Under the pieces are notes generated by a model that saw nothing but the letters and a program-made list of their open reading frames with translations, did no database searches and was not told the origin of the DNA. From Gammaproteobacteria bacterium (GTDB taxonomy: Bacteria; Pseudomonadota; Gammaproteobacteria; GCA-001735895): a DNA stretch of 39,520 nt. Shown here in pieces: positions 10,264-39,520 of the stretch (position 1 is its first letter; each line of letters starts with the position of its first letter). Location: contig JBNKUM010000015.1 of NCBI GenBank assembly GCA_050298595.1, forward strand, positions 1 to 39,520. Reading direction: 5' to 3'. A program made the translations under genes and the position numbers.

Positions 10264-10842
10264 ATGACAAGAATGTTAAGCTCCTCAATATTATTTATGC
10301 TAGTGGCCTGTACAGCAGGTAACCCTGTAACTAGCGACGATAGCGATATCAAATCACCAGCAACTGTGCAACAAATCAGTCTCGATTATCTACACGCCCT
10401 GCCCGAATATGCGCAGTTCAAACAATCTTCACTCGAATTAAAACTGATATCCAGCCAACAGGATCCATACGGAATGACACATCTGCGTTACCGGCAGGAG
10501 TTTAAGTCTGTGCCCTTGCTAGATGCCGAAATAATCACCCATATCAGGGACCAGTCGATTTATCGCATGGATGGGCAACTCGCTACTCTCGATCTGACAT
10601 CGGTGCAGCCATCGATTGGCGCTGAACAGGCAGTAGCACTCGTTGTGAAAAGCAAAAATCTCAGGCCACCTTTTTCTACCAGAGAATCTCTGGTCGTTGC
10701 CTCGACCACAAAATCCTATGACCGACTGGCCTGGCTAATCATCCTTAACAAGGCATTAAAGCGTTACATATTTCTAATCGATGCACACACAGCAACTATC
10801 ATACGTGAAATTCCCGGCATCTATACATCAACAATTGATTGA
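10264..10842 (+). CDS. Lipoprotein made only of FTP + PepSY (M4 propeptide-like) domains
   Basis: Lipobox LVAC; QDPYGMTHLRYRQEFKSVPL (FTP-like); RLAWLI...IFLIDAHTATII (PepSY-like); no HExxH. Confidence 0.72.
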   Translation: MTRMLSSSILFMLVACTAGNPVTSDDSDIKSPATVQQISLDYLHALPEYAQFKQSSLELKLISSQQDPYGMTHLRYRQEFKSVPLLDAEIITHIRDQSIYRMDGQLATLDLTSVQPSIGAEQAVALVVKSKNLRPPFSTRESLVVASTTKSYDRLAWLIILNKALKRYIFLIDAHTATIIREIPGIYTSTID

Positions 10843-10867
10843 TTCAGCTTAACTCCAGGGAGCCGCA

Positions 10868-13800
10868 ATGAAACAGACAGGGATTACAATAAGCGTTGCG
10901 ATAATAGTCATGTTAAGCAGTTCTGCAAGCAGTGCTAATCCGCCCAGCAGCTTGACCACTTATCAAATCACCAACCCTTCGATGTTGCAAACATTGCAGT
11001 CAGGCCGACCCTTGCCGAATGTTATGCACAGCTCGGGACGACGCCTGAAAACCGCTACAGGCAGTACCAGCACTGCGGCTGCAAACCAGCCCATGCTGGA
11101 TGCTTTTGCACAACGCCGTCAACACCGGATGCAGACAGACGCCAGAACAGCTGGTATCGATGTACCACAGCAGCAGGCATTATCCAGACTGGCTAGTAAC
11201 ATGCCAGAACAATCCAAAGAATTTCGCGCATATTTCAATCGTAATAATAATACTCCGACTTTCATCAAGTTTAACTCAAAGACTCCCAGCCTGGCCATGC
11301 GAGGCAGCAAGGATCAGATCGCGCAAGCCAGTTCTCGCAGCTTTATACAAGAATATAAGGATCTGTTAAAGATTGAAGATCCCGATCAGGAGCTTACCCT
11401 GGCGCGAGAACAGGCAGATTCATTTGGCAACCAGCATTTTCTGTATCAGCAAACGGTCAATGGCGTGCCGGTATGGGGTAGTGAGTTAATGCTGCATCTA
11501 CGCGACGATAATAGCGCGTATCTGCTTAATGGTCGTTTCCAGCCCAGTTTTCAGCTCGACACTAGCGCTGAGTTGACTGAAGCACAGGCCGAGGAACATG
11601 TACGTCAGGATCTGGGGGTTACCTCTACATACAAAATCAGCAGCAAGCTTGTCATTTATCCGGGAAAACAAACTGATCCACGCCTTACCTATCAGGTGGA
11701 TATACTCAGCGACCTGTCAAACCACTGGCTGTATTTTATCGATGCGCATAACGGTAAGGTAGTGCATCGCATTGATTATCGTCAAAAGATAGTGGTGAAT
11801 GCATCCGGCATGGATGAGTTTGGTAGCACAGTCAATTTCCGCGCCTGGCAGGATGGCTCCAACTACTTCATGGTTGATACAGAAGTGCCAACACCGGGTA
11901 GCAGCCCTGACCCGATTGCGAAATCTCCGGCTTCCGGTGACACCTTGATTCTCGATGCGCGTAATGGTCAGGGTGATAACCTGTATTTTGCCACCAGCAA
12001 TGCGGCCAATAGCGGTTGGGATACAACCGCAGTGAGTGCTATGGAAAATACCATGAAGGTGTATGACTATTACCTCAATACCTTCAATCGTAACAGTATC
12101 GATGAGGCCGGCAAGAACCTGATCTCTGTAATCCATTATGGGTCCAGCTACAATAATGCATACTGGAATGGCGAACTGATGGTTTACGGAGATGGCGACG
12201 GCCAGATATTCCAATCGCTTGCGCGTTGCAATGATGTAACCGCACACGAACTCACCCACGGTGTGGTCGGGGCCACAGCGGGACTTAAATATGAAAACCA
12301 GAGTGGTGCATTAAACGAAGCCTTTGCCGATATATTCGCCGCAATGGTTGATCGAGAAGACTGGACAATCGGTGAGGATTGCACAGTGGCTGCCCCCAGA
12401 TATCTGCGTAATATAGCGAATCCTGCTACAAGCCTTAATCCACAACCGACCAAAATGAGCGAATACCAGAATTTGCCCAATACTGAGCAGGGTGATAACG
12501 GTGGGGTACATGTGAATAACAGTATTCCGTCGCACGCGGCTTATTTGATAGCAGAAGGGTTGAGCGCAAAAGCCGTGGGAACTAGTATCGGGCGTGACAA
12601 AACCGAACAGATTTTCTACCGTGCCCTGACTACCTACCTGACTGCCTCTGCGCAGTTTATCGATGCGCGAAATGCGACGTTACAGGCGGCGGAAGATCTT
12701 TACGGAGCCAGTTCAGCTGAAACCAAAGCTGTAGCGCAGGCCTGGGATCTGGTTGAGGTGACCGATAATGGTACAGCCCCGCCAGATACTACACCGACTG
12801 ATACCGACCCGGTCAGCGGTGAGGATTTAATGGTTTATGTATATCCACATCAAGTTGGGTTCAACTATCTGTATGCGCAGATCATGAATGATCCATTGAC
12901 CTATATAGACGCTAATGACATACCGCTGCAGAATACGGTTTCCGCCAATCCTCAGGTGCGACCGGCTGCTTATACCAGTAATATTGAATCCGTGGTGTTT
13001 TATGTGGGAGAGGATGCAAATCTGTATGAAATCGACATCGCGCAGATCAGTCAGGCCACTCCCTCTTTCCCCTCGTATAAGATTTCCTCCTCTGCAGATT
13101 ACTGGAGTATTGCACTGGCACCCGATGGGCAATATTTCGCATTTACCAAAACGCTAGCGGACGACAATCATATCTACGTAATGGATCTTCTGGATAGCCA
13201 GCTCCCTACTTATAGCTATGTGATCACACCACCGAATTATTCGGATGGCAGCCAGTCGAGTACGCCAACAGTCCTGTATGCAGATTCTATGGCGTTCGAC
13301 TACACCGGCAGGTATATCACCTTCGATGCGCTTAACTGTATTTCTACCGAAACCAGCCAATGTAGTGCCGATGGTGGCTACCGCTACTGGTCGATTGGGA
13401 TCATGGATGCCAGTGATGGCAGTATTTCTTACCCGGTATCCAACCAGTCACCCGACACCAGTATCGGTTATCCAATCTTCGCAAAAAATAATAATTACGT
13501 TATTGCGATGGATGTTATTGACTACAGCCAGGATGTAAACAACCCTTCCTCACGTGTCATCGCTGTTGATTTCGAAACCCAGCAAACATCCCTGTTGCAC
13601 GATTTCGGATCTAACGGCGCGCCACATTTTGCAACGCCATCCTTCTGGGGAGATGACCAGAGCGTGACCATTTTGATGCCGGATTCCTCTGTCGATACCT
13701 ATGCAGTAAGAAAACGCCTGAATACCAATGGCGATGGTCGTTGGGCAGCAGCTCATGCTACTAGCGATACAATCAATGGATACAGCGTCAAAATGCCCGT

Positions 13801-14263
13801 TATGCACCGTCCTGGGCAACGTAGCAACACCGGCAATATCACACCGGCATCCAGTCAGGTCAACTTCGGTTCGGTCAATATCGGTGAACAGGCTCGCACC
13901 ACCCTGACCCTCAGCAATACAGGTAACAGCGATGTCAACATCACCAATATCCAGTTAAATGGCAATGACTTCACTCACAATGGCACCAACCTTCTTCTAC
14001 CTCGTGCAGGCAGTATCACCTGGGCGCTGACTTTCGCGCCTACTACAGCTGGAACTAAAATAGACAGCCTGACGATAACAACCGATGCGGCTGTATCCAC
14101 GGTCAGCGTGGCGCTGACAGGTACTGCGGTTGATCCGTCTGCGGGTGATAGCAACTCCTCCTCGGGTGGGGGTTTACCTGGATTGGGTATACTGCTGCCT
14201 GGACTGCTGCTGTGGATTGCGCGCCGTTATCGATTGCGATTTTTTCGTAAAACGCATTGCTAA
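10868..14263 (+). CDS. Secreted M4 (thermolysin-like) metalloprotease with propeptide, propeller-like region, Ig-like domain and GlyGly-CTERM-like anchor
   Basis: Signal peptide; FTP/PepSY propeptide; NNAYWNG, YGDGDG, HELTH, GALNEAFAD, DNGGVHVN; SIALAPDGQYFAF (TolB/WD-like); VNFGSVNIG...LTLSNTG...FAPT Ig-like domain; SSGGG + hydrophobic helix + RRYR tail. Confidence 0.92.
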   Translation: MKQTGITISVAIIVMLSSSASSANPPSSLTTYQITNPSMLQTLQSGRPLPNVMHSSGRRLKTATGSTSTAAANQPMLDAFAQRRQHRMQTDARTAGIDVPQQQALSRLASNMPEQSKEFRAYFNRNNNTPTFIKFNSKTPSLAMRGSKDQIAQASSRSFIQEYKDLLKIEDPDQELTLAREQADSFGNQHFLYQQTVNGVPVWGSELMLHLRDDNSAYLLNGRFQPSFQLDTSAELTEAQAEEHVRQDLGVTSTYKISSKLVIYPGKQTDPRLTYQVDILSDLSNHWLYFIDAHNGKVVHRIDYRQKIVVNASGMDEFGSTVNFRAWQDGSNYFMVDTEVPTPGSSPDPIAKSPASGDTLILDARNGQGDNLYFATSNAANSGWDTTAVSAMENTMKVYDYYLNTFNRNSIDEAGKNLISVIHYGSSYNNAYWNGELMVYGDGDGQIFQSLARCNDVTAHELTHGVVGATAGLKYENQSGALNEAFADIFAAMVDREDWTIGEDCTVAAPRYLRNIANPATSLNPQPTKMSEYQNLPNTEQGDNGGVHVNNSIPSHAAYLIAEGLSAKAVGTSIGRDKTEQIFYRALTTYLTASAQFIDARNATLQAAEDLYGASSAETKAVAQAWDLVEVTDNGTAPPDTTPTDTDPVSGEDLMVYVYPHQVGFNYLYAQIMNDPLTYIDANDIPLQNTVSANPQVRPAAYTSNIESVVFYVGEDANLYEIDIAQISQATPSFPSYKISSSADYWSIALAPDGQYFAFTKTLADDNHIYVMDLLDSQLPTYSYVITPPNYSDGSQSSTPTVLYADSMAFDYTGRYITFDALNCISTETSQCSADGGYRYWSIGIMDASDGSISYPVSNQSPDTSIGYPIFAKNNNYVIAMDVIDYSQDVNNPSSRVIAVDFETQQTSLLHDFGSNGAPHFATPSFWGDDQSVTILMPDSSVDTYAVRKRLNTNGDGRWAAAHATSDTINGYSVKMPVMHRPGQRSNTGNITPASSQVNFGSVNIGEQARTTLTLSNTGNSDVNITNIQLNGNDFTHNGTNLLLPRAGSITWALTFAPTTAGTKIDSLTITTDAAVSTVSVALTGTAVDPSAGDSNSSSGGGLPGLGILLPGLLLWIARRYRLRFFRKTHC

Positions 14264-14287: not shown

Positions 14288-14306
14288 AGGGGTCAACCTG
14301 ACCCCT
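14288..14306. terminator. Hairpin between convergent genes (terminator or REP-like remnant)
   Basis: AGGGGTCA-acc-TGACCCCT, a perfect 8-bp stem between the stop codons at 14263 and 14357. Confidence 0.4.
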
Positions 14307-14356: not shown

Positions 14357-15646
14357 TTACGCCAATATCCCGTTAGCAGGGCCATTGGCATCATAAGCAC
14401 CGATAGTACCATAAACCCCCATATACTGTGCGACCGTATCCAGTAACCGATGATGATTAGCAACGCTAACAATACTGCCTCGATTCACCGCAGAGCCTCC
14501 ACCAGCAAACATGAAAGGCGCATCGGTACCTGTATGTGCACCCCCGTCCCCCATATCGGTAACCTGGACAACCAGCGTTGAATCGATCATTTTTCCACCA
14601 GCAGGATCATCGGTGTCCTTCAGGCGCTGGATCAGATGCGCGACCCGTTCGGAGAAATAGGCCCGGTAGTTCGCATAGGCATCATAATTCCCACTGTGAA
14701 TCGCACTATGGTAGGCCTCGCTTTTTCCAGAAACTGAAAAGTCGGACTGATGCGTACCCAACTGAATCGTCGCTACCCTGGTGATATTGCATTTAAGTGC
14801 CAGTAGCGCATTCTCGACCTGTAGATCGAACAGATTGGTGAAGTTGCTATCGACCTCTTCAGCGGACAGGTCAGCCGGATTGAATTGTGGATTACCACAT
14901 CCTATGGGTGCCGTACTGGAGGAAGCAGATGCAAGATCATTACGCAGTTTTTCAATCGCTGCCTGGTGTTGCTCCAGACGTTGTACTTCATAACTGCCGA
15001 GCTTTGTCTTTATTTCGGCCAGTGCTGCTTCATTCACATTAAGTTTTTTATTGTTACGTCGAGTTCCGATATCACTGCTATCAATCGAGCTACCGAACAG
15101 AGTTTCAAAGGCGGCTTGCGGACTATCCTGGAATGATGAACCGGACCAGCTTGCCCGCGCCGATATTGGGTCTTTAGTCTCTGTTTGTTCTGTACTCCTT
15201 CGATTACGCACACTTAGCCGCAACGAAGCAATCGGGGACGTCGCGCCCACGGTATCTTCCAGCGCCAGATCGATAGAAGCACTCACTCCACTGGCGAAGG
15301 CACCCAATACCCGCTGCGTAAGACCGTGACCACCTCCACCAATGATTTCCACATCCTTGAAGAACACACATTCATCCTTAACGCTTTCAAGCGGCAGCGA
15401 ACTGGTTTTCAGGGTCATATTCCCGTCAGGCAGGAACGAACTGGATGCCCCACCCGGCGAACCATCCGGTACATATATAAAAATGACCTTGCGTAGTGAG
15501 TTTCCTGCCGCTTCGGCCTGACGTGACAATATCAACCCCGCGCCAAGGGTGGAAGCCTGTAACAACGGCAGCGATAACCCGGCCTTACCAATGAATTTAA
15601 GGAAGTTTCGACGCTGCAATAACGCAGCCTGTTTTTCGTGACTCAT
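14357..15646 (-). CDS. Tat-exported DUF1552 (HXXSHH-family) protein
   Basis: RRNFLK twin-arginine signal ending AEA; IFIYVPDG, GGGHG, SIDLAL, ALKCNITRVATIQ, YHSAIH, MGDGGAH...PFMFAGG. Directly downstream of a DUF1592 gene, its usual partner. Confidence 0.85.
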   Translation of the reverse strand: MSHEKQAALLQRRNFLKFIGKAGLSLPLLQASTLGAGLILSRQAEAAGNSLRKVIFIYVPDGSPGGASSSFLPDGNMTLKTSSLPLESVKDECVFFKDVEIIGGGGHGLTQRVLGAFASGVSASIDLALEDTVGATSPIASLRLSVRNRRSTEQTETKDPISARASWSGSSFQDSPQAAFETLFGSSIDSSDIGTRRNNKKLNVNEAALAEIKTKLGSYEVQRLEQHQAAIEKLRNDLASASSSTAPIGCGNPQFNPADLSAEEVDSNFTNLFDLQVENALLALKCNITRVATIQLGTHQSDFSVSGKSEAYHSAIHSGNYDAYANYRAYFSERVAHLIQRLKDTDDPAGGKMIDSTLVVQVTDMGDGGAHTGTDAPFMFAGGGSAVNRGSIVSVANHHRLLDTVAQYMGVYGTIGAYDANGPANGILA

Positions 15647-15680
15647 ATAGAACCTCGTTTAGTCTTATCCGGTGTAGCGC

Positions 15681-18600
15681 TTAGCGCACAACATTTTTAC
15701 GGTAACGCACACTATCCATGGTGCCGAGAGCTTTAAGCAACTCGACCGGACTGTTGCCACTGGCCTGCATTTTTTCATCTAGTTTCTGGACCTCACAGGT
15801 ATAGCTCGCGACCTCGTCTGCCGACAGCTCGATACCCATAATCTGATCCAGGAAGGTCGAACCGGTACCCATCGCCATACGGAAGCCAGTCTCAACAAAG
15901 CACTGTCGTGTCACATCAAGGTTGGCGATTTTGTGAGCAAAATCTTTGGCACCAGTAAAACTAATATTATTGGAATCCGAAACACTGCCTACCCCGTACA
16001 ACATTCCAGATGCATCGACATCCTGGCCGTTATCCTGGGTTTGCGGCCGACCTACCGCATCAAAGTCCTCGAACCCGCCACCCAACGGGTTGATCATTTG
16101 CGCGTGGCAAGTCTGGCAGATAGGCGCAGAGGTCTGGTATTCGTATTTCTTGCGAGCTGTGGCTTTACCGTTATGTGCATCAAGATAATCTAACCATGCC
16201 TGGCGTGCTGCCTCACGTTCTGCATCGAAATCGACATTGCCAGAATCAGTCAGCGAGACGCCGGTCGGAGGAATCGGTATGTCATGGCAGAGGAGACGTC
16301 GGCGCAAGTAAGTCGCGCGGATAATCGGAGCGGTTTCCTCTTCGTGCGCATGGACAGCCAGGAAAGCACCGTTAGTCACCAGTCCGGCACGAGATGTTAC
16401 ATTCGACACTTTGCGCATCTCACTGCCGGTGACACCGCCAATACCATAGAACTCGGCCAGCGCCTGGTTGACGAAGGTGAAATTACCATCATACAAAGCG
16501 GTGAAAGGCTCGCCTTCATCAAGCACGACATGATTGAACACATCACGCACTTCCTGCGCCATGGCTTTGCGAACCTCGTCGGTAAAACCGGGGTATTTGG
16601 ACGCTTTCTTACCGGCACTCAACACGGGATCTGTACGCAGCCACTGGGCAGCGAAATTACCAAAGTGCTCTCTTGCTCGCGCGGTACCCAAAAGCCTTTC
16701 GACCTGAGTGGAGATCTGGGCATCGGTTTCGAGCCCACCTTCACCTGCAGCCTGCAGCAGGGTTTGATCGGGCGTGGAACCGGTGAAGGTATAGGCAAGA
16801 TAAGATGCAAGCTGATAAGGAGTCAGTACGTAAGCATCGCTATCAAGCGAGTCTGCCGGTGGGGTTGGCGGAGCCTGCGGGGCCTGCGTAACTTCCTGGG
16901 CCGGGGATACTTCAACCTTACTTACAATGAGAAGCCCATCATCATTTTGCCCATTTGCACTGGCATCATTCACTACCGCTATATATTTGTAATTATCAAT
17001 CAGTCCCTGGACAGGGAAACTATAAGCTTTATAGTCACTGTGGTTGATAACATAACTCTGGAAAACGAAACCATCCCCCATATCAAGCTTAAGTGTAGGC
17101 CATGTACCCTTTGAACCCTGTGTTCCTTTAACTACAACTGTAACCAGGTCACTTCCTGTAAAAACAACATTTCCTAGACCTATTCGATTGTAAGCTGTTA
17201 TCGACTGATCACTACTAACCAGTGTCTGAACACTCCCTGTTGCTTCATACTGGCTATCACCGGTACTACCACTCTGACCACCACCGGTACTACCGCTATT
17301 CAGGTCAGCATACGCGATACCACTTTCATCACGATACAGGAATTGCGGAGAAGTCAGCGCAGTGCGTAGCGCAAGCGCAAGGCCTTCGTTTACGTTGCCA
17401 CCCGTGTAATCAGGACCAAAAATCCCCTGATAGGCAGCCAATTCTGTATCCGTAAGTGGACGTCGAAATACACGTGGCAGGTAGCTATCAATAAAGCCTG
17501 CCTTACAGGCATCAGCAGCAAGTTGACTACAATCAATAACGCCTGAGAAATTATTTGCGGCCAGCAGATCCACCACCTTGTCGACAACCAGGTTATACGC
17601 CTGTAACGAACTACTGGAAATAGTCGTCATAATGTTATTGGAATAACCATTGATCAAATTATCGGCAGGGATCGTATCGTAGGTGCTCTGGCCCAGGTCT
17701 GAACGTATATTCACCCCAGTTAAATCCTCAACCGAGTTGGAAAACTCGTGCTTCGTCAACACCCGAATACTGCGCGGACCATAGGTCACACCACAGGAGG
17801 CCGTCGTATCCGTCCCCGAGCCACCACTGGCAACAGACCAGCTATCGATATAGGCGGCGATATCGGCTGCACAGGCGGCATCACAGCTTGCAGTATCAGC
17901 AGGTGGCATGGTATCCACAATGTAGGCGGCCAACATCTGGCTATTACTACCAAAACTGGTTTTTGTTGCGTCTATGAGTTTCGGACCGGCACCTTCAGTA
18001 CCATGACAGCTGGCACATTGATCGCCATACAAAGTCGCGCCATGAGTTGCATCAGGGGTGGAGGTGCTACCGCCACCGGAACTACTGCCGCCTCCGGTAG
18101 AGGGCATTCCGCCACAACCTACCGGCTCAGTCGAAACAACGATATCGTCCATCCAGATATCAGCTGTATTACCACTGAAGCTTTGAAAACCGAACATGAC
18201 GTAATTGAACTTATCGCTCATCCAGTCACTGGACAATGCACCATTATTCCAGTCGGAAGCAGATGTAATTGAATGCACCTCTTCGCCATCAACCCATAGA
18301 TGCACTTCATCGTATGTGGTATCCGCATATAAACCGGTCTCCACACAGTACCAGGTATCGGCTAGCAAAGCCTTTCCTGATTCCCATTGAGCTTGTTTCG
18401 GTGCAATATTGTCCGTTGGCACATCGTTGGTACCAAGAACGCCTTTGATCTGACCAATACGAACTTCGTTGTTGGCATCCTGAGTTTTCTTGATACCCAT
18501 GATATGTTCGTGATTATCGCCAGCCACATTGCCCATCTGTTTGCTCATACGGACATAAGCACGAAGGTACACACGTTGCGTATTGGCTGGTAACGCACGC

Positions 18601-19388
18601 ACGATCTGCGCCAGGCTACCTTTGAAATGTATCGACTGGCTGCCATTGTAGGCATAGGTATCGTCAATCAGCGCATAATTATCATTACTGACAGAGTTAT
18701 TAGTGTTGTAATTGTAGCCGAGAAAGTTATCCCAACCAGCGGGTTGAGTATCTAGACCACCATCTTCGAAGGTATCGGAAAAAATTACGCCTGCGCTACT
18801 TCCGCCCGAGGTGCTTCCACCTGAAGTGCCTTCACCTGAAGTGCCTCCACCTGAAGTGCCTCCACCTGAAGTACCTCCACCTGAAGTACCTCCACCTGAG
18901 GTACCTCCACCCGAGGTGCTACCTCCACTACTGGAACCCGAATTAAATTCAGTCAGGATGTAATCGGCTATTAGCGAACTACAGGCCGCATCGCATGAGC
19001 CTATATTTCTCGGCGGCATAGTCGTTTGGATGCTGGAGGCCAGGGTATTATGGTCACTACAGGAGCTACAACCAATCAGGCTGGTGCTACTGGATATACC
19101 CTGTCCGGAACTGCCATGACAATTAGCACACTGCGCAACATACAGGTCCTTACCAGAGGTTCCGCCTGATGCACTACCACCGCTTGTATCAGAGCCAGAG
19201 TTACTCCCACCTGAGTTATTGCTACTGCCACCTGAGTTTGAGTCTGACGAGTTATTTGAACCAGAATTACCGGAGTTAGCACCCGGGTCTCCAGAACCCG
19301 ATGAATCTGCACCGCCCCCACAGGCCTGAAGGCTGACCAAGAAAATTACTAACACTAGTCGCAAGCTAAAATATCGAAACCTGTACAT
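15681..19388 (-). CDS. Lipoprotein: cytochrome c - Cip1-like domain - cytochrome c - DUF1587/1595/1592/1588/1585 module (3 CxxCH)
   Basis: Lipobox LQAC; CANCH (19116-19130), CASCH (18003-18017), CQTCH (16104-16118); RVLTKHEFSNSVEDL, RVFRRPLT, LTSPQFLYR, YQLASYLAY...PD, RAGLVT...PIIRA, INPLGGGFEDFDAVGR. Confidence 0.85.
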   Translation of the reverse strand: MYRFRYFSLRLVLVIFLVSLQACGGGADSSGSGDPGANSGNSGSNNSSDSNSGGSSNNSGGSNSGSDTSGGSASGGTSGKDLYVAQCANCHGSSGQGISSSTSLIGCSSCSDHNTLASSIQTTMPPRNIGSCDAACSSLIADYILTEFNSGSSSGGSTSGGGTSGGGTSGGGTSGGGTSGGGTSGEGTSGGSTSGGSSAGVIFSDTFEDGGLDTQPAGWDNFLGYNYNTNNSVSNDNYALIDDTYAYNGSQSIHFKGSLAQIVRALPANTQRVYLRAYVRMSKQMGNVAGDNHEHIMGIKKTQDANNEVRIGQIKGVLGTNDVPTDNIAPKQAQWESGKALLADTWYCVETGLYADTTYDEVHLWVDGEEVHSITSASDWNNGALSSDWMSDKFNYVMFGFQSFSGNTADIWMDDIVVSTEPVGCGGMPSTGGGSSSGGGSTSTPDATHGATLYGDQCASCHGTEGAGPKLIDATKTSFGSNSQMLAAYIVDTMPPADTASCDAACAADIAAYIDSWSVASGGSGTDTTASCGVTYGPRSIRVLTKHEFSNSVEDLTGVNIRSDLGQSTYDTIPADNLINGYSNNIMTTISSSSLQAYNLVVDKVVDLLAANNFSGVIDCSQLAADACKAGFIDSYLPRVFRRPLTDTELAAYQGIFGPDYTGGNVNEGLALALRTALTSPQFLYRDESGIAYADLNSGSTGGGQSGSTGDSQYEATGSVQTLVSSDQSITAYNRIGLGNVVFTGSDLVTVVVKGTQGSKGTWPTLKLDMGDGFVFQSYVINHSDYKAYSFPVQGLIDNYKYIAVVNDASANGQNDDGLLIVSKVEVSPAQEVTQAPQAPPTPPADSLDSDAYVLTPYQLASYLAYTFTGSTPDQTLLQAAGEGGLETDAQISTQVERLLGTARAREHFGNFAAQWLRTDPVLSAGKKASKYPGFTDEVRKAMAQEVRDVFNHVVLDEGEPFTALYDGNFTFVNQALAEFYGIGGVTGSEMRKVSNVTSRAGLVTNGAFLAVHAHEEETAPIIRATYLRRRLLCHDIPIPPTGVSLTDSGNVDFDAEREAARQAWLDYLDAHNGKATARKKYEYQTSAPICQTCHAQMINPLGGGFEDFDAVGRPQTQDNGQDVDASGMLYGVGSVSDSNNISFTGAKDFAHKIANLDVTRQCFVETGFRMAMGTGSTFLDQIMGIELSADEVASYTCEVQKLDEKMQASGNSPVELLKALGTMDSVRYRKNVVR
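18801..18926 (-). repeat. 15-bp tandem repeat encoding a (GGGTS)n linker
   Basis: About 8 copies of CCTCCACCTGAAGT(G/A)-like units between cytochrome c 1 and the Cip1-like domain. Confidence 0.9.
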
Positions 19389-19481
19389 AGGAAATCCTTA
19401 TTGAAATTACAAAAACTTTATTGATGAAACCGCTTAAACAACAACCGCCACTCTATCTACTGGTGGTTGCCTCCAATCCAT

Positions 19482-21563
19482 TTAATCAAAATCACTTTCA
19501 CTGAGAGGTGGATAAGCATTTTCAATCAACATTAAAAACTGTTTGTGGAACCAGGCACCCGCATGCGGCGCCATTGCTGGTACCACATCCACCGTCACAT
19601 TCTCGCGTTGCTCGCCTGGGATACACATAGTATCCAGTGACTTTCCGGCATAAGCAGGATCGTTAGCCTGATCAACTATCGCTTTATCGATTGCATCCAG
19701 GTCGTTATACGCCTGAGTGCCCTGCGGGTAGTTTTTGACATCAAATGAAATACCGTCAGATTCACCCGGGGGTTTCATCCAGAAGAAGGCATCAACATAA
19801 GGATGCGCAGCAGAAGGACTGGCTTTTGGCGATTCACCGATACCTGCATGATTCACATTACACCAGTGACCACGATGTACTCGCTTATCAACACGATTCG
19901 CGTCAGTGACAGTGGTACCTTTGGTACTATTCGCAGGTGTTGGACGCCCTGGAGCACCCCAGCCATTTCTTGCAGTATCAATAATAAAGCCGAGCTTGTT
20001 GCTATCGAACGCAGCATTACCGATCGCAGAACCACTTGAAATGAAGTAGTCACGCAGCATGGTCGCATAGGTCAGCTCATCGACCGCCGGATTCCATTGG
20101 TAAAAAGGTAGACCGCCGTTTTGCATCAAGGCATCTCGGTTATCCAGCCCCCCTGCCAGCATAGGCTCATCAACCGGTGTATAGCCCGAGGTATTGGATG
20201 CAAATCCACGAACCATATCCAGTCCCTTCCCATCAATCTTGCCATCGGCGCCGTCGATCAACTGCTTGAAGTACTTGACGCCCCGCTTCATATTCGACGT
20301 CATTTCCTGTTTGCTATCCCAGCCTAACCAACCGGCATGACCTATATCCAGATAAGTGTAAACATTGGGAATATCGGCAAAAGAGCGGATTGCCAGACGT
20401 AATCCAGCGCCATATAGACCAAGCCCCGGATTCTCAGCAGTACCCTCTCCCTCAACACTGGTTCCTTCACCAGAATAGTTAAGAATGCGGTCACAGTAAC
20501 CACCACTGGCCAGAGATGCGTGGACATTAGAAGTCGTCAGACTGCTGTTGGCCTCAGGCGAGCCCGATTCATTGGTATTGGTAATCATGTTCGGGAATGA
20601 ATCGGGTTCCAGCAATGCCACAATGCGCAGGTCGCTGTATTTGGGGCGGCTGAAGATATCTGCGATCACAGCAATGTATTCATCCCGGTAGCGTTCAAAC
20701 CCATCACCATTCAATGGAGCACTGGATTCGGATGGCTTACCAACTTCAATCAATTTACCGTTTGAAGCATAAGCCGCGCAATCACGGTCAGGCAGGTCGT
20801 ATACGATAATAACAACCGTCATCGGTGCTTTTTGCCCACCATTTTGGTCGGCAAAGAATTGCTGCTGGGCCAATGCCGCGTCAAGATGACCTTCCAGCGA
20901 GCGTCGGCCAGCACCAGGTTTACCTGAAACAGTTTCAATGGAATCCATCCATACCGCACTAGGCTGGCGTTGAACATATTTGATTTTATTCGCTAACTCG
21001 GTATCGCCTTCTTTCTCAACGATATTCAGCGAGTAGTCCATCATCGTTTTGATGTCTGGACTGAGATAAAAATAAGCATCGTTAAATGGGTTGCCCGTAG
21101 TTTGTAAATCGGCTGAAGGGGTACCTTTCACTTCCTGCGTTAATGGAATATCGCCGGTATAGGTATCAGTCGAAATAACATCGATAGCACCCTGATCAGC
21201 AGTGCCCCCGGTATTGGTGCCCCCGGTATTGTTGCCTCCGGTATTGCTGCCTCCGGTATTGCTGCCTCCTGTATCGGTACCTCCTGTATCGGTACCTCCT
21301 GTATTGGTACCTCCTGTATTGGTACCTCCTGTATTGGTACCTCCTGTATTGGTACCTCCTGTATTGGTACCTCCTGTATTGGTACCTCCTGTATTGGAGC
21401 CTCCTGTATTGGTGCTATCTGTATTTGAACTGTTTCCGCTACTTGATGAATCATTAGCAGATGGTGTAGCGCCACCTTTAGACGAACCAGAACCACAAGC
21501 CTGAAGTGTTAGCAAAAGCGCGAGCAAAACCAGGCGTACTAAAAAATATCTAATCCAATACAT
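19482..21563 (-). CDS. GH6 cellulase (cellobiohydrolase-type) lipoprotein, no recognisable CBM
   Basis: Lipobox LQAC; AVWMD, YDLPDRDC, LEPDS (catalytic Asp), YLDIGHAGWLGW, IDTARNG, GHWCN, WMKPPGESDG, APHAGAWF. Confidence 0.93.
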   Translation of the reverse strand: MYWIRYFLVRLVLLALLLTLQACGSGSSKGGATPSANDSSSSGNSSNTDSTNTGGSNTGGTNTGGTNTGGTNTGGTNTGGTNTGGTNTGGTDTGGTDTGGSNTGGSNTGGNNTGGTNTGGTADQGAIDVISTDTYTGDIPLTQEVKGTPSADLQTTGNPFNDAYFYLSPDIKTMMDYSLNIVEKEGDTELANKIKYVQRQPSAVWMDSIETVSGKPGAGRRSLEGHLDAALAQQQFFADQNGGQKAPMTVVIIVYDLPDRDCAAYASNGKLIEVGKPSESSAPLNGDGFERYRDEYIAVIADIFSRPKYSDLRIVALLEPDSFPNMITNTNESGSPEANSSLTTSNVHASLASGGYCDRILNYSGEGTSVEGEGTAENPGLGLYGAGLRLAIRSFADIPNVYTYLDIGHAGWLGWDSKQEMTSNMKRGVKYFKQLIDGADGKIDGKGLDMVRGFASNTSGYTPVDEPMLAGGLDNRDALMQNGGLPFYQWNPAVDELTYATMLRDYFISSGSAIGNAAFDSNKLGFIIDTARNGWGAPGRPTPANSTKGTTVTDANRVDKRVHRGHWCNVNHAGIGESPKASPSAAHPYVDAFFWMKPPGESDGISFDVKNYPQGTQAYNDLDAIDKAIVDQANDPAYAGKSLDTMCIPGEQRENVTVDVVPAMAPHAGAWFHKQFLMLIENAYPPLSESDFD
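21205..21414 (-). repeat. 15-bp tandem repeat encoding a (TNTGG)x14 linker
   Basis: CCTCCTGTATTGGTA and variants; 14 units counted in the translation. Confidence 0.95.
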
Positions 21564-22184: not shown

Positions 22185-23585
22185 TCACGCAAGGCTAGCA
22201 TAAACAACCACCCATACCGACAGGATAACGCCACAAATCAGGGTATAAACTCCATTCCAGCGCTGGCCTACATGCGCAGAGTTGACACCTGCAAAATTTC
22301 CGATAAGCATAGTGGTTGCGGTAAATGGAGAACTGACGCCGCTTAATAACCAGCCTGCAGTTAATGAGATGACTATCGCTACCGGTGACACGCCAAGTTG
22401 TGCGGCATCTGGTAACACCGGCGCTATTAACGCAACCGCCAATATCGGATTCATACCAAGCTGGCCTGCCAATGGGATAAGCCACACCATCAGCACCAGA
22501 ACACTCCAGGCGGGTAATACAGTTAAATCAATACTCAGTGTTGCCATCAATGAACCTAACAGCGGAGAAGCCACGGTTCCGATATAACCTGCCATCACCA
22601 ATAACACCAGTTCACCGCGAAAATCTGCCAGCTGTACCAGCAGGTATTCTGAACTACGTTTAGTTACCTGTTGCAAAGGATGCTGCGATCTATTCTGCAC
22701 TGCGATCCAGGCCATAGATAATAACGGTACTATAACCATCACCAATGCCAGCACTCGAATCCCCGTCAAGTAGTAGGCCACGCCCAGCAGTGATATCAGT
22801 ACTAACAGCAGTAATATCAAAGGCAATACGGCAAGCCAGCTGCCTTCAACCTGTCGCTGAGGGATGGCGGCAGTTAACAGTTTTGGTTTAAATACCGTAT
22901 CCAGAGTCCAGCCCACACCCACGAGTATGGCCCCATTAATCAGGCCGGGTAAGAAACATAAGGCCCATGAAGTACCGGGGATTAACGAAGTCGGTATGGC
23001 CATAGCAAAAGACAGCGGTGACCAGGAAAGAGTAGAAACAAAACCGCGTTGTATCGCCAGTAGCATACGCCTTACCCGATGATTACGAATTTCTTCGTTT
23101 TTCTCCAGGCTGGCATTAACAATCGTCATACTACCGAGTAGTGATATAGCCCCGTAATTCAGTAACAGGCCAAATAACTGACCACCAACCGTCAAAGCTG
23201 CGTAGCGTCTACCCGGCGGTTGCTGAGATAAAAAACGTCCACATAACTGTATCGCTGGTGATGTGGATGCCGCATATTTGAGTGTGGTTAAGGCTGCAAA
23301 AAAAGCAGCGATGAAAGAGCCCGTAGCAAAACCGGAAGTAAGGGTTTGCGAAGCCTGATCATTCCAGATCAGGTTAATCATCGTCAGAATCACCGCTATC
23401 AGGACATAAATTCTGCGCCCATACGAGACATAAAAGCTCAGCATGAATATCAACAGCACGAGCGGTATAAATATAACGCTGTCGACACCCGACCAGAGTT
23501 TGAATTCACGACACAGCACCAGTAGCCCGATACAGAGAGACAACAGGCCGGTCAATTTTCCCATCGATGGGGGTATAGCTTTCAT
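22185..23585 (-). CDS. Multi-pass membrane protein, probable secondary transporter of unknown substrate
   Basis: About 12-13 hydrophobic segments; RGF...WSPL and GMNPI motifs. Family not pinned down. Confidence 0.65.
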   Translation of the reverse strand: MKAIPPSMGKLTGLLSLCIGLLVLCREFKLWSGVDSVIFIPLVLLIFMLSFYVSYGRRIYVLIAVILTMINLIWNDQASQTLTSGFATGSFIAAFFAALTTLKYAASTSPAIQLCGRFLSQQPPGRRYAALTVGGQLFGLLLNYGAISLLGSMTIVNASLEKNEEIRNHRVRRMLLAIQRGFVSTLSWSPLSFAMAIPTSLIPGTSWALCFLPGLINGAILVGVGWTLDTVFKPKLLTAAIPQRQVEGSWLAVLPLILLLLVLISLLGVAYYLTGIRVLALVMVIVPLLSMAWIAVQNRSQHPLQQVTKRSSEYLLVQLADFRGELVLLVMAGYIGTVASPLLGSLMATLSIDLTVLPAWSVLVLMVWLIPLAGQLGMNPILAVALIAPVLPDAAQLGVSPVAIVISLTAGWLLSGVSSPFTATTMLIGNFAGVNSAHVGQRWNGVYTLICGVILSVWVVVYASLA

Positions 23586-23959: not shown

Positions 23960-24361
23960 GTGTGGTTATTGAGAATTCTCTCCCCAATGAACTGGCCCAA
24001 GCAAAAATTTCTACCATGGACTTTAATGCTGATAATGGTATTCAGCTCCGTACAGGCTGCAGTTAACGATTACTTTATGGAGCACAGTGTAAAATGTCCT
24101 ATGTCTGAAATGCATTTGGTAGCCGAACAATCTACATCGCTATCATCAGATAATGACCAGCCAACAAAGCTTGATACTACTCATAGCAACCATTGCCAAT
24201 TACACCCACAGTGTACTGCACATATAAATTTAACTTCGTTATTAGACTTAAATCTGGATCAGTTAGCCTTCAGACAGCCTATACGCAATATACTGATTTC
24301 TGGCGATGAATTAGTTCTCTCAATCTATCCAACCCTGTCTAAACGCCCTCCGAAGACCTGA
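23960..24361 (+). CDS. Small exported Cys/His protein ending in RPP (CopL/DUF2946-like)
   Basis: Hydrophobic signal ending VQAA, central HSNHCQLHPQCTAH, C-terminal YPTLSKRPPKT. Start codon uncertain. Confidence 0.6.
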   Translation: MWLLRILSPMNWPKQKFLPWTLMLIMVFSSVQAAVNDYFMEHSVKCPMSEMHLVAEQSTSLSSDNDQPTKLDTTHSNHCQLHPQCTAHINLTSLLDLNLDQLAFRQPIRNILISGDELVLSIYPTLSKRPPKT

Positions 24362-24563
24362 TCCACCTGGCTTAAACTCATAAGCCTTTTCGACGTTATC
24401 TGCTTTATCTTTATACAGCAGTAAAAGTGTCTGAGATAACTTAGCAATTGATACATATAGCAGTTAAGCATAATCCCAGATAACCAATGAAATTAATGCA
24501 AGTAGTGATATTTAAATAACCTGGAGTCATATGACTTCATTAAATAAGCAACGAGGAAATGAA

Positions 24564-24974
24564 ATGAAAACAATTAAAAGTTTGATATTAAGTACTGTAG
24601 TGATTGCAATGTCTTCAGCAGTTGGGGCTCAGGGAATGGACCCATCGATGATGCAACAGTACCCAGGCGGCATGACGCCTCAACAAATGCAGCAGATGCA
24701 ACAGCAAAGAATGCAAAATGGTATGCCCATGGGAGATCCTGGCACGATGCCGATGTACCAGCAAAATATGCCCATGATGGATTCACAGCGTAACCAGATG
24801 ATGATGGATCCGGTAATGCGCAAAAATATGATGCAATATCGTCAGGCATGCATGTCTGGGCAGGGCGGTATGATGCATCATCAAATGATGCAACACATGA
24901 CTCAAATGGAGCAGCGTCTGGATAAAATTGAAGCGATGTTAGCAGAGCTAATCAAGTTACAGAAAAGTAAATAG
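24564..24974 (+). CDS. Periplasmic Met/Gln-rich protein, possible Cu(I)/Ag(I) binder
   Basis: GAGGA RBS before MKTIKS, a signal peptide, very high Met content, MMHHQMMQHM and a C-terminal coiled coil. Confidence 0.65.
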   Translation: MKTIKSLILSTVVIAMSSAVGAQGMDPSMMQQYPGGMTPQQMQQMQQQRMQNGMPMGDPGTMPMYQQNMPMMDSQRNQMMMDPVMRKNMMQYRQACMSGQGGMMHHQMMQHMTQMEQRLDKIEAMLAELIKLQKSK

Positions 24975-25064
24975 AAACACCTACAAAGTTATTCGTGTGC
25001 AGAATTAGATATTTACCAGCACCCGGATAAATTATTTTGGGACACTTAAAGAGGTGATGAGATT

Positions 25065-25280
25065 ATGAACAGTTTATCAATGAGTATTGGTCCATTTTAC
25101 ATGATAGCCACCTGGGTATTAGTTGGATTTTCAACCTATGCACTTTTTAGATTCTTTTTTTCAAATACCCAGAACAACAAAGTCGAAAGCGATATTGATA
25201 TCCTGAAGAAGAGATATGCAAAGGGTGAGATTGACTCAGCAGAGTTTAATAAGATTAAAAATGATCTCCAACGATATTAG
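25065..25280 (+). CDS. Small membrane protein with SHOCT domain
   Basis: One TM helix followed by DILKKRYAKGEIDSAEFNKIK. Confidence 0.8.
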   Translation: MNSLSMSIGPFYMIATWVLVGFSTYALFRFFFSNTQNNKVESDIDILKKRYAKGEIDSAEFNKIKNDLQRY

Positions 25281-25442
25281 GGAACCTCTGATCAAATCGT
25301 GGATCGGTGTGTGGTGGCTGAAATAATCCGGATCAGCGTTAAAAAGTTTCGCAAGAGCTTGCTATTACGTGCACTTTTCGCCTTGATCCGAACTATTTCA
25401 TCTCACCACACCCTCGACCCAGAACTAATCATAGGTTCCATA
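25278..25442. mobile_element. MITE-like long imperfect palindrome
   Basis: Ends TAGGGAACCTCTGAT ... ATCATAGGTTCCATA; internal pairing GTGTGGTG/CACCACAC, TGAAATA/TATTTCA, CGGATCA/TGATCCG; TA at both ends. Confidence 0.7.
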
Positions 25443-25454
25443 GAGGTGTAAGCG

Positions 25455-25799
25455 ATGTCACAGACAAGTTTAGTAAGGCGTAAAATTTCATTATCTGCTC
25501 CAGTTTCGAACGAACAAATACAGAAATGTATTACATCAATGAGAGAGAATGAGGCCATACAAAACGTAGAGTATGGTCGGTCCAGTAACACCCTCTCAAT
25601 TGAATATGATCAGCTTTTAACGAACTACTCAACTCTATTAGCCCACCTGTCTGAGCTGGATATTGCTTATAAAGAAAGTCTTACTTTTAAATTACGAAAA
25701 AACTGGTATGACTACCTGGATGCAAACACCAGAGAAAATGCATTGGCACCGCCTGCATCCTGCTGTAATAAGCCGCCTAAAAAAACCAACTTAAAATGA
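25455..25799 (+). CDS. HMA-like small protein with C-terminal SCCNKPP
   Basis: GAGGT RBS; LSIEYD ferredoxin-like pattern; terminal CC motif; located in a metal-related cluster. Confidence 0.55.
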   Translation: MSQTSLVRRKISLSAPVSNEQIQKCITSMRENEAIQNVEYGRSSNTLSIEYDQLLTNYSTLLAHLSELDIAYKESLTFKLRKNWYDYLDANTRENALAPPASCCNKPPKKTNLK

Positions 25800-25888
25800 A
25801 ATTACCGGAGCTCATCTCATGAGCGAAGTTACTGATAAACGGAGATAAACGCGGACATATATTCACGCCAAATTTTTCATACGTGTAT

Positions 25889-26245
25889 CTACTCTTTTCT
25901 CAGAGGCAAACCACCAAGGGGAATAGTTAAAACTGAACCTAGCCACAGTATCGGAATACTGATAAGGGTAACCAAACCGCATTCATGTCCTTTACAAAGA
26001 TAAAAGTAATATGAAACAAGTATAGGAATAAAATAGGTAAGAATAGAGCTTATTAGGACCCTATGTGGAAATACAGACCAAAAACTTATTACAATAAAAA
26101 TTACAACTGGAATGAAAAATATGGATAAGACAGCTATGGAGTAGTACCCAAATTCAGAAAAATCAAATCCGCGCGTCAAAAAATATAGTTGTAATATTCC
26201 GAAAATTGCCGAAGTAATCACTGAAAGTATTGGAGTTATTTTCAT
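25889..26245 (-). CDS. AT-rich 4-TM hypothetical protein, probable integron cassette
   Basis: ATG lies 7 nt after the GTTAGGG of the attC; hydrophobic; CKGHECG loop. Confidence 0.6.
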   Translation of the reverse strand: MKITPILSVITSAIFGILQLYFLTRGFDFSEFGYYSIAVLSIFFIPVVIFIVISFWSVFPHRVLISSILTYFIPILVSYYFYLCKGHECGLVTLISIPILWLGSVLTIPLGGLPLRKE

Positions 26246-26252
26246 ATTGGTT

Positions 26253-26340
26253 CCCTAACGCTTACTTAAACAGCTGCGCCACAGAGGTAACGTGAGTGGC
26301 ACGATAGTTCCGCGAGTCCGTTTTAAAGTTTTTGTTTGGA
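26253..26340 (-). other. Integron attC recombination site
   Basis: Minus strand reads TCCAAAC-AAAAA-CTTTAAAAC...GCCAC..GTGGC...GTTTAAG-TAAGC-GTTAGGG: AAC/GTT core boxes, 5-nt spacers, L boxes with extra bases, 88 bp long. Confidence 0.7.
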
Positions 26341-26378
26341 TAATAATAAATTGGATGTTCTCAATTATCATTTTCTAT

Positions 26379-26678
26379 TTAGCCATCTCTTCTTTTCCAC
26401 AAAATAATAAACAAACTAGCAAAAAATACTGGAGTCCAAAACCATTTTGCTACCGTTACTTTATAAGCAAAACTATCTTGACTCGGTACCTCTATACCTA
26501 GTATTGAAATTGGAATGTCGGCCATTGAAATAACTATATCAGTGACAACAGGCACGGGGATTATTGCAAAAACAAACAAAACCAAAGGGAATATAAAGAA
26601 AAAAAATAAAGCAAAAATACTAGATACGATTGCCGCGGCAACAAATTGATTTACTTTATTTTTATTTTCATTATCCAT
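26379..26678 (-). CDS. AT-rich small membrane protein, probable integron cassette
   Basis: Preceded by GTTAGGA (26691-26685) 6 nt before the ATG and followed by the attC. Confidence 0.6.
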   Translation of the reverse strand: MDNENKNKVNQFVAAAIVSSIFALFFFFIFPLVLFVFAIIPVPVVTDIVISMADIPISILGIEVPSQDSFAYKVTVAKWFWTPVFFASLFIILWKRRDG

Positions 26679-26736
26679 TCAACATCCTAACCAGGCTGTA
26701 GAAAAATTAAGTTTTGAATACAGATATTCTCTAACC

Positions 26737-26937: not shown

Positions 26938-27048
26938 AATCTTTTTAAATCTTTTTAAATCTTTTTAGGACACCCAGTTTTTGATACTTGACATGACTAT
27001 AGATCAACGCTAACGTAAAATCCATTGACTCAACGCAAGGAGCGCATT

Positions 27049-30790: not shown

Positions 30791-30791
30791 A

Positions 30792-38879: not shown

Positions 38880-39520
<641 letters not shown>

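Follow-up and report, generated by a model that had tools for sequence, protein, structure and literature searches.

What is a cellulase gene doing beside a gene pair drawn from two functionally blank families, DUF1592 and DUF1552, and what might that pair do? The locus that raises the question lies in a 39,520-nucleotide stretch (the window) of contig JBNKUM010000015.1 from the gammaproteobacterial assembly GCA_050298595.1, and consists of three open reading frames (ORFs), all on the minus strand: a lipoprotein of glycoside hydrolase family 6 (GH6; P0001, 19482-21563, 693 aa), a multi-haem lipoprotein that ends in a DUF1592-type module, called X132 in CAZy (P0002, 15681-19388, 1235 aa), and a DUF1552 protein with a twin-arginine translocation (Tat) signal (P0003, 14357-15646, 429 aa). 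The ORF coordinates give gaps of 93 bp between P0001 and P0002 and 34 bp between P0002 and P0003, in agreement with a preliminary description of this DNA, which saw three co-oriented genes and proposed that they form an undescribed cellulose-redox system. We favour, as moderately probable, a reading in which the locus encodes a two-subunit extracytoplasmic haem/metal heterodimer of the Cbp2D/TERTU_2913 kind, assembled from Sec- and Tat-exported subunits, fed by X183 cytochromes and taking part in oxidative cellulose breakdown; our confidence is higher for the identity and pairing of the two proteins, and much lower for their chemistry.

The haem protein can be placed through domains whose structures have been solved. 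Its matches among solved chains (8q1v, 8q1w, 8q2a, 8q28 and 7b21) are X122 and X183 domains of Teredinibacter turnerae TERTU_2913 and TERTU_3803 and the X183 cytochrome of Cellvibrio japonicus Cbp2D, and together with the Pfam matches (two Cytochrome_CBB3 stretches, the Cip1-like PF21340 at residues 237-420 with E 1.5e-14, then PSD3, PSD5, PSD4 and PSCyt3) they give the order X183-X122-X183-X132. NCBIfam added only sub-threshold cytochrome matches for P0002 and no match for the GH6 or DUF1552 protein. The first cytochrome domain (residues ~76-150; 18939-19163) carries CANCH at 87 and matches PF13442 and, over residues 79-148, the TtX183 structure 8q1v (E 9.9e-15); the second (residues ~445-520; 17829-18056) carries CASCH at 458 and matches 8q1w (E 1.4e-12) over residues 447-518, as well as the Cbp2D cytochrome CjX183 (7b21, E 1e-4). 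With one CxxCH each and homology to TtX183 and CjX183, both are c-type cytochromes of the X183 group, for which haem attachment is predicted; the protein holds exactly three CxxCH motifs, the third lying at 1091 in the X132 module. Between the cytochromes sits the Cip1-like beta-jelly-roll, X122 (residues 199-428; 18105-18794), which matches 8q2a, a "putative lipoprotein", at E 1.5e-75, 8q28 at E 2.5e-74, and Cip1 itself (3zyp) at E 5.7e-8. The leader peptide (19320-19388) ends in the lipobox VSLQAC-G with Cys23; judged by the lipobox consensus, both P0002 and P0001, each with a hydrophobic leader ending in LQAC-G, are predicted to be lipidated.

In the available portion of Rajagopal et al. 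2024 (PMC10916295), TERTU_2913 is described as having no carbohydrate-binding modules (CBMs) and as containing X122, X183 and X132, with CxxCH motifs in X183 and X132. P0002 has the same domain types (X122 at E 1.5e-75, X183 at E 1e-12 to 1e-14) and likewise no CBM, and both proteins are lipoproteins by annotation or leader. The two differ in that three X183 domains are described for TERTU_2913 and two are present here, and in three of the eight residues of the conserved patch that the same portion of PMC10916295 gives for TtX122A (Trp29, His100, Arg118, Asn129, Met131, Asp134, His213 and Phe215): as read from our alignment, five positions are kept (H293, R310, N321, D326 and F404), while Trp29 is replaced by Tyr (Y225), Met131 by Val (V323) and His213 by Gln (Q402). 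Judged from its sequence, P0002 belongs to the TERTU_2913 type but has one X183 domain fewer, two where TERTU_2913 has three.

The C-terminal X132 module of P0002 spans residues 530-1235 (15684-17801) and contains PSD3 (542-608), PSD5 (628-688, with the motif SPQFLYR), an insert (~714-833), PSD4 (855-983) and PSCyt3 (1000-1119, with CQTCH at 1091). The four Pfam families, equivalent to the DUF1587/1595/1592/1588 set, occur in this order and all above their cut-offs, as is characteristic of DUF1592-type proteins. Because the X132 modules of relatives with a CBM2-YceI-cytochrome (Cbp2D-type) architecture give the same four matches, the "X132" of CAZy and the "DUF1592 cluster" are one module; DUF1587 had already been annotated ahead of X132 in Cbp2D in the part of Branch et al. 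2021 (PMC8981238) cited here. C1091, C1094 and H1095 are invariant in an alignment of 49 sequences, and apart from H1095 of the CxxCH motif no invariant His or Met was seen in the X132 alignments. An AlphaFold2 model of residues 530-1235 (predicted local distance difference test, pLDDT, 92; predicted template-modelling score, pTM, 0.82) is helical in its N- and C-terminal parts, with the beta-sandwich insert at module residues 185-303 between them, and a fold search with it found no solved structure at E <= 0.001. The insert, ~120 aa between PSD5 and PSD4 (16890-17249, minus strand), has no Pfam match and weakly resembles the folds of CBM4, CBM6, CBM16 and CBM36 (E ~1e-2). The preliminary description was thus right about a lipoprotein with three CxxCH motifs and a Cip1-like domain; its word "undescribed" does not hold, since X183 and X122 domains of this TERTU_2913 type have already been crystallised (PMC10916295, in the portion available) and the DUF1592 module is the X132 of CAZy.

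The finding on which our reading turns is the constancy of the DUF1552 partner. One genome per species was scanned with an alignment of 49 homologues, and from the 271 stretches found we kept the best 80 (numbered with the prefix L) with flanks of up to 10 kb; these are nearly all from Gammaproteobacteria, so we make no statement on other phyla, and the C. japonicus and T. turnerae loci are not among these best 80 of 271. In 77 of the 80 loci the X132 gene is followed immediately downstream by a DUF1552 gene (73 by phmmer and four, L004, L033, L040 and L044, by tblastn); in the remaining three (L008, L010 and L030) the sequence stops inside the X132 gene or less than 80 nt from it. This adjacency is far beyond chance, and DUF1552 appears to be a constant and so far overlooked partner of the X132 family. 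A search that did not extend to subscription papers gave no paper in which a DUF1552 partner is connected with Cbp2D or X132, and none on the locus tags that neighbour TERTU_2913, TERTU_3803 or cbp2D; in the available portions of the X132 papers, DUF1587 (once printed DUF1687) is the one DUF name that appears, and we found no remark there on twin-arginine signals or gene neighbours. T. turnerae does have a DUF1552 protein (P0253). Across 46 loci (1035 pairs), the pairwise identities of the X132 and DUF1552 proteins correlate at r = 0.94, which fits co-inheritance.

Structure prediction points to a physical complex. The pair modelled was that of Teredinibacter waterburyi (L049, Cbp2D-type), as complete X132 module plus mature DUF1552 protein with a 46-row alignment each. 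Three runs gave ipSAE interface scores of 0.85, 0.85 and 0.86, against 0.04 for the best of three controls, with at least 81% contact agreement between runs and a pLDDT of at least 85 for the partner; in calibration, 116 of 157 solved complexes and 2 of 215 mismatched pairs had passed the mark used for this score, counts that are approximate for custom alignments such as these. Nor can the score go back to a complex already known to the predictor, since no relative of either family has been solved (0 sequence matches for DUF1552; 0 fold matches at E <= 0.001 for X132). Mapped to the numbering of the window proteins, the confident interface comprises G108, R223, H227, H317 and H371 on the DUF1552 side and R539, D576, S680, P681 and Y685 (these last three in SPQFLYR), P1040, P1041 and R1058 on the X132 side. 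The model supports binding of X132 and DUF1552 as a heterodimer.

What, then, does the partner contribute? P0003 matches DUF1552 (PF07586, "HXXSHH" in Pfam; E 3e-33) and carries a twin-arginine signal (RRNFL at 12), and in an alignment of 108 sequences R12, R13, G62, H107, D126, P176, F184, H227, C250, C286, H313, H317, H371 and P377 are at least 90% conserved. The motif that names the family reads H313-S-A-I-H317-S in P0003, so that only its first and fifth positions are kept, and these are the ones near-invariant in the 108 sequences. The preliminary description had called P0003 a Tat substrate with His motifs, which the signal and the five conserved histidines (H107, H227, H313, H317 and H371) confirm. 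The AlphaFold2 model (pLDDT 87.4, pTM 0.83) is placed in the alkaline-phosphatase/sulfatase superfamily because its best Foldseek matches are sulfatases, phosphonate monoester hydrolases and LtaS (E 1.7e-6 to ~1e-3; template-modelling (TM) score 0.35-0.41; 9-15% identity); by sequence, P0003 has no match among solved structures. Language-model features place DUF1501 nearest to DUF1552 (score 0.85), which we treat as no more than a lead. Taken together, the conserved residues, the signal and the modelled fold support P0003 as a Tat-exported metalloprotein and not as a sugar oxidase.

The fold invites another explanation, that DUF1552 is an alkaline-phosphatase-superfamily hydrolase or transferase acting on a decorated glycan or a phospho- or sulfo-ester, with X132 targeting or regulating it and the GH6 incidental. 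Besides the fold matches and the nearness to DUF1501 in language-model features, it gains from the occurrence of PSCyt genes next to sulfatases in Verrucomicrobia, reported in the portion of PMC5615132 available. The fold matches are weak, however; the sulfatase signature [CS]x[PA]xR occurs nowhere in P0003, which has no Pfam Sulfatase domain and so does not group with S1 sulfatases; and the explanation leaves unaccounted for the constant, invariant haem site of the partner and the extra cytochrome that usually stands directly before X132. We consider it improbable.

The modelled fold also bears on the chemistry first proposed for the locus, in which the GH6 frees cello-oligosaccharides and the DUF1552/DUF1592 pair oxidises them, with electrons leaving through the haems as in a bacterial counterpart of cellobiose dehydrogenase. 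The adjacency and common orientation of the GH6 gene and its matching leader type speak for such coupling, as do relatives in which a glucose/sorbosone-type dehydrogenase domain (GSDH, 10 of 52 relatives) and a lactonase-like domain are fused to X132, so that sugar oxidation can be coupled to the module. In those relatives, however, the dehydrogenase is a separate, fused domain of the pyrroloquinoline quinone (PQQ) type that P0002 lacks; Pfam finds no flavin (GMC, FAD), PQQ/GSDH or NAD domain in P0001, P0002 or P0003; the DUF1552 fold models as phosphatase/sulfatase-type; and, as described below, the GH6 gene is a feature of this locus only among those compared. Oxidation of cello-oligosaccharides by DUF1552 is accordingly not borne out, and this account as a whole seems to us quite unlikely. 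The analogy to fungal cellobiose dehydrogenase and the AA12 PQQ pyranose dehydrogenase holds in part: a modular cytochrome is tethered near cellulose in both cases, and the GSDH-bearing relatives copy the dehydrogenase-cytochrome-CBM logic, so that the comparison suits them better than the locus at hand. P0002 itself has no dehydrogenase domain, its haems are c-type and not b-type, and the X132/DUF1552 unit is an extra without fungal counterpart.

The GH6 protein is in itself a clear case. P0001 consists of a leader with lipobox (residues 1-23; 21495-21563, minus strand), a Thr/Gly/Asn-rich linker to ~150 and a GH6 domain (~154-693) that matches PF01341 at E 5.6e-70; the nearest solved chains are GH6 cellobiohydrolases and exoglucanases (5xyh, 6k52, 7cbd and 4b4f; E 8e-82 to 2e-66). 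Its catalytic-region motifs, DLPDRDCAA at 256, EPDS at 319 and PGESDG at 599, align with those of solved cellobiohydrolases, and with these Asp-bearing motifs in place the protein belongs to GH6 and is intact, as first described. The link to the pair is another matter: no GH6 was found in any of the 80 related loci (phmmer at E <= 1e-5, tblastn at E <= 1e-3; 1,445,575 nt), among them the closest, L001, whose pair is 75% and 92% identical to that of the window and which has IS1595 transposase ORFs at the corresponding place. On this ground we rejected the GH6 as a conserved part of the system, and the GH6 link that the preliminary description had built into it falls away by that description's own refuting condition, a lack of conservation; the gene appears to be a one-off, recent, lineage-specific addition.

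How it was added may be read from its leader. The pattern MYxxR...LQAC, seen in P0001 as MYWIRYF...LQACG, occurs in seven of 82 X132 ORFs and in one of 953 other ORFs from the window and the loci, and that one is this GH6; the X132 lipoproteins that bear the leader come from several genera. The first 136 residues of P0001 are 50% identical to the N-terminus of the X132 protein of L003, in a region of low complexity. We also considered a very recent duplication of the 5' ends of the window's GH6 and P0002 genes and rejected it, since the DNA alignment shows no more than moderate identity; the leader type is still shared at the protein level. We infer that a leader and linker of the X132 type came to stand in front of a GH6 catalytic domain in the window lineage, after its split from that of L001. 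Because it carries the same unusual leader as the X132 lipoproteins, the GH6 is probably sent to the same place, and the cellulase would then be exported and anchored as those proteins are. In three loci (L001:8340-9166, L029:7324-8292 and L062:6026-6970), IS1595-family transposase ORFs directly precede the X132 gene or its Cbp2E-like neighbour, which suggests that the region upstream of the X132 gene is a rearrangement hotspot.

If not through the GH6, how is the pair tied to cellulose? We surveyed the architectures of 52 representatives, drawn from 56 clusters at 80% identity, by Pfam searches of their N-terminal parts, and lettered the types ourselves. Type A, the type of the window, is cytochrome, Cip1-like, cytochrome, X132 (6 of 52, with two further cases, L013 and L014, detected by phmmer alone). 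Type C, the Cbp2D type, is CBM2, YceI, an optional cytochrome and X132 (15 of 52), and type D, which resembles TERTU_3803, is CBM2, an optional gluconolactonase-like domain, PQQ-type GSDH, CBM2, cytochrome and X132 (10 of 52). Type E is PKD, cytochrome, GH5, cytochrome, X132 (3 of 52), one unlettered case has CBM2, cytochrome and X132, and type B and others (17 of 52) have a cytochrome, PKD or no Pfam-recognised module ahead of X132. A cellulose-associated module therefore lies in the same polypeptide in 35 of the 52 relatives (CBM2 in 26, GH5 in three, Cip1-like in six). Types A, B and E, whose modules measure ~680-700 aa, have the beta-sandwich insert in X132; types C and D, at ~537 aa, lack it. 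The Cip1-like domain of P0002 is 57-73% identical to domains of 25 other proteins, of which 19 also carry GH5 and three carry PF03067, presumably LPMO_10. Anchoring also follows a pattern: an L-x-[AG]-C-G lipobox recurs in relatives without CBM2, and those with CBM2 have ordinary signal peptides, so that the X132 protein seems to be tied either to the cell or to cellulose. The lipoprotein tethering suggested at the outset is plausible on this evidence.

The best-studied relative strengthens the link. In the part of Kakacek et al. 2025 (PMC12542752) cited here, cbp2D and cbp2E of C. japonicus are among six genes required for growth on insoluble cellulose, together with cel6A (GH6) and lpmo10B, and a Cbp2D/Cbp2E heterodimer with a novel mechanism of cellulose cleavage is put forward. 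For the family, then, the original cellulose-redox idea is upheld, by the 35 fusions and by the need for Cbp2D. Cbp2D (CBM2-FN3-X158/YceI-X183-X132) has the X183 cytochrome and X132 in common with P0002, which differs in having a predicted lipid anchor in place of CBM2, X122 in place of YceI, and the extra insert of ~120 aa in X132; CBM2, YceI and an upstream Cbp2E-like gene, the marks of the Cbp2D/Cbp2E system, are absent from the window. Among our loci, those of the Cbp2D type, from 14 other species, all have DUF1552 directly downstream, and a Cbp2E-like CBM2-(PKD)-YceI gene lies directly upstream in 13 of these 14, with CBM2-GH5-YceI in the fourteenth (L020). Because of this arrangement, the gene next to cbp2D in C. 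japonicus, CJA_2617, should by synteny be a DUF1552 gene. In supplement file 1 of PMC12542752 it is a "hypothetical protein" that goes up on cellulose (log2 2.21) along with CJA_2614 (2.50), cbp2E (CJA_2615, 2.70), cbp2D (CJA_2616, 2.26) and CJA_2618 (2.12).

The published work on Cbp2D also underlies a different account, in which the haem protein is an electron wire to a lytic polysaccharide monooxygenase (LPMO) or to extracellular acceptors and DUF1552 a non-catalytic helper in assembly, maturation or secretion. CjX183 of Cbp2D reduces and activates LPMOs, if slowly (PMC8981238, in the part cited here), long-range electron transfer is suggested by the authors of PMC10916295 in the portion available, and DUF1552 lacks the classical Ser/Thr/formylglycine nucleophile motif (no [CS]x[PA]xR). 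Yet the TtX183 domains failed to drive a T. turnerae LPMO in that same portion of PMC10916295, and no AA10 LPMO gene was found within 10 kb in the 80 loci or in the window (tblastn with one AA10 domain query, of limited sensitivity). The near-invariant His and Asp residues across 108 diverse DUF1552 sequences suggest a working metal site over a scaffold, and the family, with 3579 representative clusters at E <= 0.001 and 998 at E <= 1e-10, is very large and occurs where no cellulose system is evident in the available text of PMC5615132. We regard this account as rather doubtful.

The genes around the pair bear on where electrons might come from in relatives. In 51 representative loci we scanned at most three ORFs to either side of it, as called by a simple ORF picker (282 in all). 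Nine of the 51 (L009, L015-L019, L023, L025 and L026; for example L019:13366-16271), which is nine of the 19 loci that are of type A, B or E, have Redoxin, DUF3570 and ApbE genes next to the pair; a DUF4266 ORF in L019 and DsbD in L026 were confirmed as well. Méheust et al. 2021 (PMC8238504) identified the same DsbD/DUF4266/DUF3570/ApbE set, with its flavinylated DUF3570, as a system of unassigned function for extracytosolic electron transfer, and the part of that paper available holds no mention of X132 proteins. Other catalytic carbohydrate-active enzymes are few among the neighbours: GH5 in L020 and L031 (L031 also has GH3 and esterases), pectate lyases in L029 and an alpha-amylase in L067. 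Lcl_C (PF07603/DUF1566) genes come two in a row after or around DUF1552 in 13 of the 51 loci (L032, L034, L035, L037, L038, L041, L043, where they form one fused ORF, L048, L049, L064, L065, L066 and L073); this gene pair is present in eight of nine GSDH-type loci, the ninth, L033, not being scorable by the ORF picker. Large PF00141 peroxidase genes adjoin the X132 gene in two loci (L003:7644-9797, plus strand, 718 aa; L065:3287-5515, minus strand, 743 aa), which hints at a link to hydrogen peroxide.

In the heterodimer reading, P0002 would be exported by Sec, lipid-anchored and loaded with haem in the periplasm, forming a chain of two X183 cytochromes, an X122 jelly roll and X132 with its own invariant CxxCH. 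P0003 would fold in the cytoplasm, probably around metal ions held by its near-invariant histidines, leave through Tat, and in the periplasm dock with its His-rich face on the conserved SPQFLYR region of X132, as modelled for the homologous pair. Electrons might then travel by way of the X183 haems, towards or away from the haem of X132 and the X132/DUF1552 site, where redox chemistry connected with cellulose breakdown would take place; in relatives, the electron source could be a fused PQQ sugar dehydrogenase or the neighbouring DsbD-type export system with flavinylated DUF3570. The GH6 would be a locally recruited cellobiohydrolase, probably directed to the same place by the shared leader.

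Several points weigh against this reading, besides the failure of the TtX183 domains to drive an LPMO and the missing LPMO genes. The complex was modelled on the T. waterburyi pair, 33-41% identical to the window pair (706 + 379 residues) for which it stands; on the X132 side its interface columns show no higher conservation than the other positions (0.51 versus 0.60), and on the DUF1552 side barely higher (0.55 versus 0.50), and the haem CxxCH is absent from its confident contacts. Common descent alone would give a correlation such as r = 0.94. No DUF1552 fusions were found among proteins of 752-2145 aa, which is weak evidence. To our knowledge, the alkaline-phosphatase superfamily is hydrolytic or transferase-type and not redox. 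The 17 relatives of type B and others have no recognisable carbohydrate module, the GH6 is missing from all 80 loci, and Pfam finds no DsbD/DUF4266/DUF3570/ApbE cluster, GSDH or Cbp2E-like gene in the 39.5-kb window, although a flavinylated electron-transfer cluster may sit elsewhere in the source genome. X122 domains showed no activity and no binding in the available portion of PMC10916295.

Transcription signals and surrounding genes add context. A scan for consensus sites found no terminator-like site within the 93-bp or 34-bp gap; a promoter-like site (21756-21729, minus strand; 10 of 12 hexamer matches, consensus only) lies upstream of the GH6 gene, and a GC-rich palindromic hairpin, listed for the plus strand at 14288-14306 and a possible terminator, lies between the convergent DUF1552 and M4 protease genes. 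These signals are compatible with a single transcript of the three genes; across the region, promoter-like sites are no more numerous than in shuffled sequence, and an alignment of the window with L001 upstream of the X132 gene was uninformative as to a conserved promoter except for a short stretch in the ribosome-binding region. A GH5 cellulase with a Sec-type signal (29000-30223, plus strand; PF00150, E 4e-43), 7.4 kb upstream of the three genes and on the opposite strand, shares 78% identity with the GH5 that L001 has ~8 kb upstream of its pair, and possibly belongs to the same functional neighbourhood. Its C-terminus has a (D/N)PV repeat linker followed by a hydrophobic tail, and it lies in a low-GC stretch (~24000-33000; GC 0.36-0.40 versus ~0.50 elsewhere) together with small ORFs without Pfam matches.

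On the other side of the locus, a complete Wadjet anti-plasmid system occupies 3117-9981 on the minus strand (JetD 3117-4262, JetC-like SMC ATPase 4259-7933, JetB/DUF4194 7884-8549 and JetA 8539-9981); L009 has JetA, JetB and JetC genes 46-55% identical to these, upstream of its own X132 pair. The M4 protease region (10264-14263, plus strand), convergent with P0003, holds a 192-aa ORF with a fungalysin/thermolysin propeptide (FTP) motif alone, directly before a 1131-aa M4 thermolysin-type protease that has an FTP and PepSY propeptide of its own and is Ig-like at the C-terminus; the small ORF is either a duplicated propeptide ORF or part of a split gene. A membrane protein is encoded at 22185-23585, and gshA, AraC, LigAB and acyl-CoA dehydrogenase genes lie beyond the low-GC stretch. 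The ORF at 38880-39518 (plus strand), which runs off the end, has an acidic, proline-rich repetitive C-terminal part with a sub-threshold match to a trypanosome repeat family, probably low-complexity linker sequence.

The pairing of X132 with DUF1552 has a wider parallel in the PSCyt3-PSD proteins of Planctomycetes and Verrucomicrobia, which contain the same Pfam modules in the same two-gene arrangement with DUF1552 and were reportedly first described by Studholme et al. in 2004. Those proteins also carry PF07624 and PF07635, which we take to be PSD2/DUF1585 and a PSCyt1-type domain; P0002 has neither, and a Pfam search gave no PSD2/DUF1585 match in it. In the available portion of He et al. 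2017 (PMC5615132), PSCyt3 genes adjoin an unassigned gene family and sometimes carry CBMs, a role on carbohydrates is already suggested, and the proteins are predicted to be periplasmic or cytoplasmic rather than surface- or cellulose-bound. The part cited here of Alessi et al. 2018 (PMC6004670) has a CBM2 DUF1592 protein of Cellvibrio in a table from a straw-degrading community.

One module has thus been followed in two literatures, as "X132" in the cellulose redox proteins Cbp2D and TERTU_2913 and as half of a "planctomycete-specific" DUF1592/DUF1552 pair, and the two are not joined in the searchable papers. Brought together, they supply work on Cbp2D with a concrete component that it had lacked, a predicted Tat-exported metalloprotein encoded directly downstream, whose absence may explain why full-length TERTU proteins could not be produced (PMC10916295, in the portion available) and why isolated domains were inactive. 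We think it rather a long shot that the X132-DUF1552 heterodimer is a new extracytoplasmic enzyme class, with a c-type haem subunit and a His-rich metal centre, the latter set in an alkaline-phosphatase-like fold, forming one polysaccharide-oxidising site; were it so, electrons would be fed through X183 from the cell (by way of DsbD and then flavinylated DUF3570) or from fused PQQ dehydrogenases, and thousands of PSCyt3/DUF1552 pairs in Planctomycetes and Verrucomicrobia would be the same enzyme with other binding modules, directed at other glycans. The window adds one further member to the family, together with an unusual GH6 that bears the family's leader peptide, and Cbp2D, genetically tractable and with a growth phenotype, offers a model for DUF1552 and DUF1592, two huge families that are functionally blank.

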